The notes beneath the pieces were generated by a model, which saw only the letters and a program-made list of their open reading frames with translations, ran no database searches and was not told the DNA's origin. Below, in pieces: positions 29,136 to 32,346 of a stretch of DNA of 64,000 nt; the first letter of the stretch is position 1, and every line of letters begins with the position of its first letter. A program made the position numbers and the translations under genes. The DNA is from Escherichia coli (lineage in GTDB: Bacteria; Pseudomonadota; Gammaproteobacteria; Enterobacterales; Enterobacteriaceae), in assembly GCF_016903815.1 (NCBI RefSeq), contig NZ_CP069973.1; one strand, written 5' to 3'.

Positions 29136-30500
29136 TTGATTACACATATTAGCCCGCTTGGCTCCATGGATATGTTGTCGCAGCTGGAAGTGGATATGCT
29201 TAAACGCACCGCCAGCAGCGACCTCTATCAACTGTTTCGCAACTGTTCACTTGCCGTACTGAACTCCGGTAGTTTGACCGATAACAGCAAAGAATTGCTG
29301 TCTCGTTTTGAAAATTTCGATATTAACGTCTTGCGCCGTGAACGCGGCGTAAAGCTGGAACTGATTAATCCCCCGGAAGAGGCTTTTGTCGATGGGCGAA
29401 TTATTCGCGCTTTGCAGGCCAACTTGTTCGCGGTCCTGCGTGACATTCTCTTCGTTTACGGGCAAATCCATAACACCGTTCGTTTTCCCAACCTGAATCT
29501 CGACAACTCCGTCCACATCACTAACCTGGTCTTTTCCATCTTGCGTAACGCTCGCGCGCTGCATGTGGGTGAAGCGCCAAATATGGTGGTCTGCTGGGGC
29601 GGTCACTCAATTAACGAAAACGAGTATTTGTATGCCCGTCGCGTCGGAAACCAGCTGGGCCTGCGTGAGCTGAATATCTGCACCGGCTGTGGTCCGGGAG
29701 CGATGGAAGCGCCGATGAAAGGTGCTGCGGTCGGACACGCGCAGCAGCGTTACAAAGACAGTCGTTTTATTGGTATGACAGAGCCGTCGATTATCGCCGC
29801 TGAACCGCCTAACCCGCTGGTCAACGAATTGATCATCATGCCAGATATCGAAAAACGTCTGGAAGCGTTTGTCCGTATCGCTCACGGTATCATTATCTTC
29901 CCTGGCGGTGTGGGTACGGCAGAAGAGTTGTTGTATTTGCTGGGAATTTTAATGAACCCGGCCAACAAAGATCAGGTTTTACCATTGATCCTCACCGGCC
30001 CGAAAGAGAGCGCCGACTACTTCCGCGTACTGGACGAGTTTGTCGTACATACGCTGGGCGAAAACGCGCGCCGCCATTACCGCATCATCATTGATGACGC
30101 CGCTGAAGTCGCTCGTCAGATGAAAAAATCGATGCCGCTGGTGAAAGAAAATCGCCGCGACACTGGTGACGCTTACAGCTTTAACTGGTCAATGCGCATT
30201 GCACCAGATTTGCAAATGCCGTTTGAGCCGTCTCACGAGAATATGGCTAATCTGAAGCTTTACCCGGATCAACCTGTTGAAGTGCTGGCTGCCGACCTGC
30301 GCCGTGCGTTCTCCGGTATTGTGGCGGGTAACGTAAAAGAAGTCGGTATTCGCGCCATTGAAGAGTTTGGTCCTTACAAAATCAACGGCGATAAAGAGAT
30401 TATGCGTCGTATGGACGACCTGCTACAGGGTTTTGTTGCCCAGCATCGTATGAAGTTGCCAGGCTCAGCCTACATCCCTTGCTACGAAATCTGCACGTAA
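29136..30500 (+). CDS. ppnN: nucleotide 5'-monophosphate nucleosidase (LOG-like)
   Basis: 454-aa ORF (ygdH); synteny. Confidence 0.88.
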
Positions 30501-30649
30501 TCTCCCCTCCCCCGGTGACGTTTGTTGCCGGGTTTTCTCGTTTTTGGTCACTTACTCATCAACTCATTTCATTTGTTATATGAATGTTTCTTACCACCCT
30601 CACGCGACAAATATCATCACAGTCAATATGTCATACAATTTATATTGCA

Positions 30650-30665
30650 ACGCAAACGTTTCCCT
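30650..30665. promoter_or_regulatory. PurR-box-like motif between ppnN and sdaC
   Basis: ACGCAAACGTTTCCCT fits the PurR operator pattern ANGMAAACGTTTNCNT at every specified position; about 390 bp upstream of the sdaC ATG. Confidence 0.35.
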
Positions 30666-31056
30666 ATTTTCATAAACCGTATTTTATCGCTATGAAAAAG
30701 AAATTATCGCCATGATTAACTAAAAGTATTGATTTTTTCAGTTCAACCTACATATATTGCGCGCCCCGGAAGAAGTCAGATGTCGTTTAATGGGCAAATA
30801 TTGCCCTTAAATTCTCTTTTACTTTTAATTTACAGAGTAAAGCGTTGGGATAATCTATCTTCCAAGTAGATTATTGTATTTGGGATCAAGATCACTGATA
30901 GATACATAACTTGTGTGTATCTTTCCGCCCTCAAATTATTACGGCGGTAAATGATTAAGCCATCGCCGATAGACAGATTTCATTTTTACGGTCAGGCACC
31001 TTCCCGGGCTGAACTGGCTAAAAGCTGAATTATTTGCATTCCTCCAGGAGAAATAG

Positions 31057-32346
31057 ATGGAAACGACTCAAACCAGCACGATTGCGTCGAAAGACTCTCG
31101 TAGTGCCTGGCGCAAGACAGACACCATGTGGATGCTGGGCCTTTACGGCACGGCAATCGGCGCGGGCGTGCTGTTCCTGCCAATCAACGCCGGTGTTGGC
31201 GGTATGATCCCGCTGATCATCATGGCTATCCTTGCGTTCCCGATGACGTTTTTTGCTCACCGCGGCCTGACTCGCTTCGTACTGTCTGGTAAAAACCCGG
31301 GCGAAGACATCACCGAGGTTGTAGAAGAACACTTTGGTATTGGCGCAGGTAAACTGATTACCCTGCTCTACTTCTTCGCTATCTACCCGATCCTGCTGGT
31401 TTATAGCGTGGCAATCACCAATACCGTTGAAAGCTTCATGTCTCACCAGCTGGGTATGACGCCACCGCCGCGTGCGATTCTGTCGCTGATCCTGATCGTG
31501 GGTATGATGACCATCGTTCGCTTCGGTGAGCAGATGATCGTTAAAGCGATGAGTATTCTGGTATTCCCGTTTGTTGGCGTACTGATGCTGCTGGCTCTGT
31601 ACCTGATCCCGCAGTGGAACGGCGCTGCACTGGAAACGCTGTCTCTGGACACTGCATCTGCAACCGGAAACGGTCTGTGGATGACCCTGTGGCTGGCAAT
31701 TCCGGTAATGGTGTTCTCGTTCAACCACTCTCCGATCATCTCTTCTTTCGCCGTTGCGAAGCGTGAAGAGTACGGCGATATGGCAGAACAGAAATGCTCG
31801 AAGATCCTGGCATTCGCACACATCATGATGGTGCTGACCGTAATGTTCTTCGTCTTCAGCTGTGTACTGAGCCTGACTCCGGCAGACCTGGCTGCGGCTA
31901 AAGAGCAGAACATCTCGATTCTGTCTTACCTGGCTAACCACTTTAACGCACCGGTTATCGCGTGGATGGCTCCGATTATCGCGATTATCGCTATCACCAA
32001 ATCCTTCCTCGGTCACTACCTGGGCGCACGTGAAGGCTTCAACGGTATGGTGATTAAATCTCTGCGTGGTAAAGGTAAGTCTATCGAAATCAACAAGCTG
32101 AACCGTATCACTGCGCTGTTCATGCTGGTAACGACCTGGATTGTTGCCACCCTGAACCCGAGCATCCTGGGTATGATTGAAACCCTGGGCGGCCCAATCA
32201 TCGCGATGATCCTGTTCCTGATGCCGATGTACGCAATTCAGAAAGTACCGGCAATGCGTAAGTACAGCGGTCACATCAGCAACGTATTCGTTGTCGTGAT
32301 GGGTCTGATTGCAATCTCCGCAATCTTCTACTCTCTGTTCAGCTAA
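31057..32346 (+). CDS. sdaC: serine:H+ symporter
   Basis: 429-aa hydrophobic [34 protein letters not shown]... Confidence 0.95.

Follow-up and report, generated by a model that had tools for sequence, protein, structure and literature searches.

A conserved PurR box far upstream of sdaC and adjacent to a YieP site in Escherichia coli

The spacer between ppnN and sdaC in Escherichia coli carries a PurR operator that is almost certainly real, bound in vivo and already catalogued. We think it very probable that this operator forms part of a far-upstream control region of sdaCB, through which PurR would exert mild tuning. PurR, a dimeric repressor of the LacI family, binds DNA once it carries hypoxanthine or guanine. 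As a discovery the site carries little weight, because it was published in 2011; its interest lies in its regulatory effect and in a possible contribution of PurR to an occupancy peak that has been attributed to the regulator YieP. Our analysis adds to the 2011 report the conservation of the box across genera, its fixed spacing from sdaC and its relation to YieP sites and promoters.

A PurR-bound operator between ppnN and sdaC

The window, by which we mean the entire 64-kb stretch of DNA that was analysed, comes from a non-K-12 E. coli and contains ppnN (nucleotide 5'-monophosphate nucleosidase; 29136..30500, + strand) and, downstream on the same strand, sdaC (L-serine:H+ symporter; 31057..32346, + strand). 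The latter assignment follows the list of open reading frames (ORFs) and the MG1655 RefSeq annotation; sdaC is the first gene of sdaCB and the presumed target of the operator. In a BLAST comparison with 5,426 complete E. coli genomes, the flanking ORFs were ppnN and sdaC in essentially all. The intergenic region is 556 bp long; it differs from that of MG1655 at five positions, all of which lie outside the box. The operator, ACGCAAACGTTTCCCT, occupies 30650..30665 (+ strand match), which corresponds to U00096.3 2,927,822-2,927,837 (window-to-U00096.3 offset, +2,897,172). It starts 150 bp past the ppnN stop codon (30500), beyond the ppnN terminator, and 391 bp separate its end from the sdaC ATG (31057). 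The initial annotation had placed it about 150 bp from ppnN and about 390 bp from sdaC in a 556-bp leader, in agreement with these ORF ends and starts.

Several features identify the sequence as a PUR box, the first of which is a unique pattern match. ACGCAAACGTTTCCCT is an imperfect 16-bp palindrome with a CpG at its centre. It agrees with ANGMAAACGTTTNCNT at all specified positions, as had been claimed on first inspection, and it follows the 16-bp pattern ACGCAAACGTTTGCGT with the central CG. Scanning both strands of the window returned 30650-30665 as the sole ANGMAAACGTTTNCNT match, and 0 of 100 dinucleotide-preserving shuffles yielded one. We also scored the window with a symmetrised PurR matrix built from the 27 other motif sites in Table 1 of Cho et al., with the sdaC site excluded. 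On this leave-out matrix the box reaches 20.8 bits and ranks approximately eighth of 28, comparable to the sites at purC, purL and glyA; the second-highest score anywhere in the window is 11.6 bits. According to the exact score distribution, a score of at least 20.8 bits has a probability of 3.6e-8 per position, so that ~0.17 such sites are expected per 4.64-Mb genome and 2e-5 per 500-bp spacer.

Direct evidence for binding was published by Cho et al. in 2011 (NAR 39:6456, PMC3159470). Table 1 of that study lists a PurR ChIP-chip region at 2,925,514-2,926,070 (U00096.2), assigned to the transcription unit sdaC-sdaB, with the motif AGGGAAACGTTTGCGT at U00096.2 2,925,844-2,925,859. AGGGAAACGTTTGCGT is the reverse complement of the window box, and the coordinates concur after the 1,978-bp shift between U00096.2 and U00096.3; the published entry and the window box are therefore the same site. 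Its log2 enrichment was 2.08 with adenine versus 0.83 without, the former being the top value of the table and common to purC, purMN, purEK and glyA, and it was among only 13 sites occupied without added adenine (PMC3159470). Published ChIP-chip thus documents both occupancy in vivo and purine-enhanced binding on this exact sequence, which bears out the operator identity that the initial annotation had proposed.

The initial annotation had also asked whether the site was catalogued, and had suggested that PurR control would make sense because serine feeds one-carbon and purine metabolism. The site has been listed since 2011 in Table 1 of Cho et al., who had already drawn the same inference, namely that PurR exerts direct control over serine transport, which feeds N10-formyl-THF (PMC3159470). 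Both the site and the rationale have therefore been known since that year. Our literature search found no published electrophoretic mobility shift assay (EMSA) or footprint at the sdaC box nor, for PurR together with ppnN or ygdH, anything that ties the site to ppnN. In RegulonDB v8.0, only three new sites of the Cho ChIP set are described as validated with strong evidence, and these appear from the companion evidence paper to be codBA, tsx and xanP. That companion paper counts 23 curated PurR sites (2013), which rest on gel-shift or footprint data, and 'sdaC' is absent from its text. The sdaC site apparently never entered core RegulonDB, a gap that probably led a later occupancy study to call the locus unannotated, and it needs database curation.

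A further PurR-like sequence overlaps codons 6-11 of sdaC (31072-31087). This sequence, ACCAGCACGATTGCGT, contains a perfect PurR right half-site, CGATTGCGT and scores 8.9 bits; at a distance of 422 bp from the main box, it ranks second among the PurR-like matches of the locus. Chance probably explains it, as ~0.05 matches of this quality are expected per 500 bp, and it is inseparable from coding constraint. We considered it as a looping partner for the main box and dropped the idea in view of this expected frequency, of the conserved coding sequence in which it lies and because PurR is not known to form tetramers.

Conservation and spacing of the box in Enterobacteriaceae

We scanned one genome per species, which gave 80 Enterobacteriaceae SdaC loci. 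The ppnN gene lies directly upstream in 76 of these and, with MG1655 added, 77 ppnN-sdaC spacers were each scored with the leave-out PurR matrix. In 48 of the 77, the best match scores 14 bits or more (16 bits or more in 45 of these 48) and is situated 370-397 bp before the sdaC ATG. Another 12 spacers carry a weaker box of 9.7-13.9 bits at the same position, for a total of 60 of 77. By chance, ~0.003 matches of at least 14 bits are expected per spacer, equivalent to ~0.3% of 500-bp spacers. The genera that bear the box include Escherichia, Salmonella, Citrobacter, Enterobacter, Klebsiella and Raoultella, as well as Kluyvera, Lelliottia, Leclercia, Cedecea and Pseudescherichia; it has been lost in Kosakonia, Yokenella, Trabulsiella, Pluralibacter, Siccibacter, Klebsiella indica and some Buttiauxella.

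The position of the box is fixed relative to sdaC and not to ppnN. Among the 48 spacers whose box reaches 14 bits or more, the ATG lies on average 387 bp from the box (standard deviation 7.8), and exactly 389 bp from it in 20, whereas the distance from the ppnN stop codon to the box ranges over 52-262 bp with a standard deviation of 40. The letters of the box turn over between genera and yet stay PurR-like, as in ACGCAAACGATTACCT, AGCCAATCGTTTGCGT and AAGCAATCGATTGCTT; the 60 bp on its 5' side hold almost no information across genera, and these flanks are unalignable. The E. coli strains MG1655, UTI89, O157:H7 and 2012C-4502 share one and the same box, and adjoining bases vary among them. Judged from these comparisons, the box is under purifying selection, because its distance to the ATG is fixed and its turnover is PurR-like amid diverged flanks. 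On the same comparative grounds, we assign it to the 5' edge of the sdaC control region and not to ppnN. Conservation this deep and spacing this constant speak for a function of the PurR site at its non-canonical position far upstream.

Two further features of the alignment concern the surroundings of the box. In the Klebsiella/Raoultella clade (loci L007, L008, L010 and L016-L019) and in L006, it lies 370-371 bp from the ATG instead of ~389 bp, which indicates a deletion of ~19 bp in the downstream control region with the box kept; in the Klebsiella/Raoultella clade the box also has the opposite 'orientation' (AGCCAATCGTTTGCGT). Approximately 10 bp 3' of the box, at 30675-30690, is the motif AACCG-N5-TTATC (for example, aaccgtgatttatcag), which is kept in most box-retaining genera (L005-L081) and is dissimilar to the PurR matrix.

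Promoters and YieP sites around the box

To the 5' side of the box, a terminator scan identified the ppnN intrinsic terminator at 30511..30545 (+ strand), which consists of a hairpin at 30511-30532 with nine stem pairs (six of them G-C) followed by a T-tract. The only promoter-consensus match within 30450-31100 lies to the 3' side, at 30729..30758 (+ strand). This distal sigma-70-like candidate, TTGATT-18-TATATT, is followed by a GC-rich discriminator and is kept as TTGATT-18-TATCTT in Salmonella and as TTGGTT-18-TATCTT in Citrobacter. Its predicted start, near 30765, would place the centre of the box at approximately -108. Transcription from this candidate, which is located ~290 bp 5' of the sdaC ATG, would produce a long leader with the CRP site described below inside it.

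A conservation profile over the 77 loci peaks, within the spacer, in the block 30866-30955. This block includes a predicted near-consensus CRP site at 30881..30896, with the sequence TGGGATCAAGATCACT in the window and TGAGATCAAGATCACT in MG1655, a change that is one of the five spacer differences between the two; from its resemblance to the consensus TGTGA-N6-TCACA, we take it to be the putative CRP site of sdaC. A proximal promoter region is predicted from sequence and conservation at 30918..30942 (+ strand), where there are two candidate -10 hexamers. With TATCTT (30918-30923), the CRP site would be centred near -41.5 and the box near -272; with TATTAC (30937-30942), the corresponding predicted positions are -61.5 and -293. 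An inverted repeat at 30925-30947 (CCGCC, a 13-nt AT-rich loop and GGCGG) also falls in this most conserved block, across the candidate proximal -10 and start region, and might form a leader hairpin or serve as a binding site for a protein. The available literature, including PMC10882989, describes sdaC as controlled by CRP and Lrp. Frendorf 2024 reports that sdaC is CRP-dependent and that its promoter is mutated in cya suppressors (+ATT and +A), and it states that experiments have yet to verify an sdaC promoter (PMC10882989). Likewise, our literature searches found no experimentally mapped sdaC start site.

This arrangement sets the sdaC box apart from the canonical operators of the pur regulon. 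The boxes of purF, purT, purC, purMN, purHD and glyA share with it the 16-bp palindrome, a similar matrix score and PurR binding in vivo that is enhanced by adenine and hence by hypoxanthine. According to the main text of Cho et al., however, canonical boxes overlap the -35 or -10 element or lie downstream of the start, as in purB and purR, and they bring about clear repression (PMC3159470), whereas every predicted sdaC start lies at least ~108 bp downstream of the box. We rejected the possibility that the operator lies inside a core promoter, since the promoter scan of either strand found no consensus at the box. At its distances from the predicted starts, the box would also not be placed to block initiation or elongation. 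Among LacI-family sites, ~7% are located more than 200 bp from the start codon (PMC4052901). The PurR site of prsA, described as far upstream (He, Choi and Zalkin 1993, as cited in PMC4052901), resembles the sdaC box in its distance from the gene; the sdaC box, in addition, abuts a YieP activator site.

The two YieP sites are given in the Methods of a protein-occupancy (IPOD-HR) study from the Freddolino laboratory (PLoS Biol 2021, PMC8282354). Site 1, ATTTGTTATATGAAT, maps to 30571..30585 (U00096.3 2,927,743-757), and site 2, ATATGTCATACAATT, maps to 30626..30640 (U00096.3 2,927,798-812), which leaves 9 bp between site 2 and the PurR box downstream of it. That study found a strong peak upstream of sdaC, presented it as representative of 'orphan' peaks without an annotated site, and attributed it to YieP; YieP at sdaC is documented by ChIP-exo, EMSA and reporter data (PMC8282354). 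The peak and the PurR box fall within the same 60-bp neighbourhood. The peak is present in rich defined medium and absent in minimal medium and in stationary phase, whereas the ChIP-exo binding of YieP was observed in glucose minimal medium, the condition from which the IPOD peak is absent. PurR binding is to be expected in rich defined medium, where the same study shows it at purC (PMC8282354).

These observations lead us to consider, tentatively and with the balance somewhat against it, that the rich-medium 'YieP' peak is largely or partly purine-loaded PurR, and that PurR and YieP form a conserved composite distal element. A PurR share in the peak is suggested because the peak is absent in minimal medium despite YieP binding, and because adenine raises the PurR enrichment at the site from 0.83 to 2.08. 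The pulldown that identified YieP used U00096.3 2,927,790-2,927,975 as bait, corresponding to 30618-30803 of the window; before this step the lysate had been run over baits carrying the lexA and purR promoters, and the analysis was confined to a ~25 kDa band (PMC8282354). The bait fragment contains the PurR box. PurR has a mass of ~38 kDa, and the pulldown could not have found it, because the lysate had been pre-depleted on the purR promoter and only the ~25 kDa band was taken. From sign epistasis in reporters combining yieP and site-scramble changes, the authors of the occupancy study infer that another regulator acts at the sdaC promoter; a purR-deletion IPOD-HR data set exists, and PurR is unconsidered at the sdaC locus (PMC8282354). 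In a composite element PurR would act without promoter occlusion, and it is possibly this second regulator, or possibly even a positive one.

Possible regulatory effect of PurR on sdaCB

The initial annotation had proposed that PurR controls serine uptake and degradation through this site. The bound operator is established; as to control, our literature search, which covered Cho et al. in its main text, found no documented PurR-dependent change in sdaCB expression. That main text names other genes as newly found repressed targets, reports that 57% of the bound genes were unchanged in expression and reports no gene directly activated by PurR (PMC3159470). In the iModulon compendium, sdaC is absent from PurR-1 and PurR-2 and is assigned to the Crp module; the compendium includes adenine and purR-deletion conditions, and the glucose minimal medium tested keeps sdaC low. 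The sdaC mRNA amounts to 317 TPM in rich defined medium with purines versus 18 TPM in minimal medium, a ~20-fold difference (PMC8282354). Since sdaC is that much higher in purine-containing medium, any repression must be small beside other inputs, and sdaCB clearly stays on when PurR occupies the site. The proposal of PurR control is thus weakened by the membership of sdaC in the Crp module, by the absence of overlap with a predicted core promoter and by this ~20-fold increase.

The mechanism that we propose combines these elements. The PurR dimer, loaded with hypoxanthine or guanine, binds the high-affinity box, as shown by ChIP, adenine dependence and sequence. The box abuts the YieP activator site and would lie ~108 bp from the distal candidate start and ~270-290 bp from the CRP-dependent proximal region. 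At these distances from the predicted promoters, PurR presumably cannot use the canonical occlusion of RNA polymerase here, and its distal position beside YieP suggests that it tunes sdaCB and does not act as an on/off switch. Repression at peripheral far-upstream PurR targets is only few-fold. When purines are plentiful, PurR may down-tune sdaCB in a mild and condition-dependent manner by interfering with upstream activation, by YieP and through the upstream promoter architecture, and CRP, Lrp and YieP would stay the dominant controls. To mild repression by such anti-activation we give a little less than an even chance. It would fit the logic of PurR at glyA and gcvTHP, where one-carbon need is lower. 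The locus could serve as a tractable case of a distal LacI-family repressor beside an activator, and of a link between purine status and serine catabolism.

The opposite sign of regulation seems to us rather improbable, although several observations speak for it. PurR could play a positive or architectural role by bending the DNA beside YieP when purines are plentiful, thereby aiding sdaCB activation or relieving repression, so that serine surplus to one-carbon and purine synthesis is then imported and deaminated. The ~20-fold rise in sdaC occurs in purine-containing rich medium, and only there is the strong occupancy peak seen. That peak fits the adenine dependence of PurR better than it fits YieP, which is bound in minimal medium. 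A far-upstream position beside an activator site is typical of co-activators and not of repressors, and the fixed distance to the downstream control region suggests a spacing-dependent function. Against these points, the main text of Cho et al. contains no gene that PurR directly activates (PMC3159470), Lrp with leucine, YieP and other inputs can explain the difference between rich and minimal medium, and sdaC is missing from the PurR iModulons. A role for PurR as a roadblock is less probable again and, in our judgement, unlikely. PurR bound past the ppnN terminator would in this case halt read-through from ppnN into sdaCB at high purine levels, as it does inside purB, which PurR represses by blocking elongation according to PMC3159470 and PMC4052901. 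On the strand shared with ppnN, the box does follow the terminator of that gene, and in several genera it sits only ~15-30 bp past the T-tract. However, a roadblock would not need the observed fixed distance to sdaC, and the ppnN terminator looks competent, so that read-through should be small.

It is very unlikely that the site is silent, a high-affinity PurR sequence that arose by chance and regulates nothing. This reading would accommodate the 57% of PurR-bound genes without an expression change in the main text of PMC3159470, the place of sdaC outside the PurR expression modules and a box position that does not fit repression. Nevertheless, 48 of 77 species have a box of 14 bits or more at the same position, compared with ~0.3% by chance, with compensated turnover and diverged flanks, a pattern that is hard to account for unless purifying selection maintains the box. 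We give very little credence to the remaining alternative, in which the box serves an unannotated transcript or small ORF, or another LacI-family protein, such as RbsR or Cra, that recognizes a AAACGTTT-like core. LacI-family operators have a central core in common. The motifs of PurR and RbsR are similar (PMC4052901), the spacer is long (556 bp), and mechanically called ORFs of 43-57 amino acids overlap the box. However, the flanks of the box, including these ORFs, are not conserved between genera, and promoter consensus is absent on either strand at the box. An Rfam scan of 30400-31150 at an E-value of at most 1 gave no match and hence no known RNA element. The unannotated transcript that the initial annotation had offered as a second target for PurR therefore receives no support, given also the ppnN terminator upstream. 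As for the identity of the binding protein, direct PurR ChIP with adenine dependence names PurR itself.
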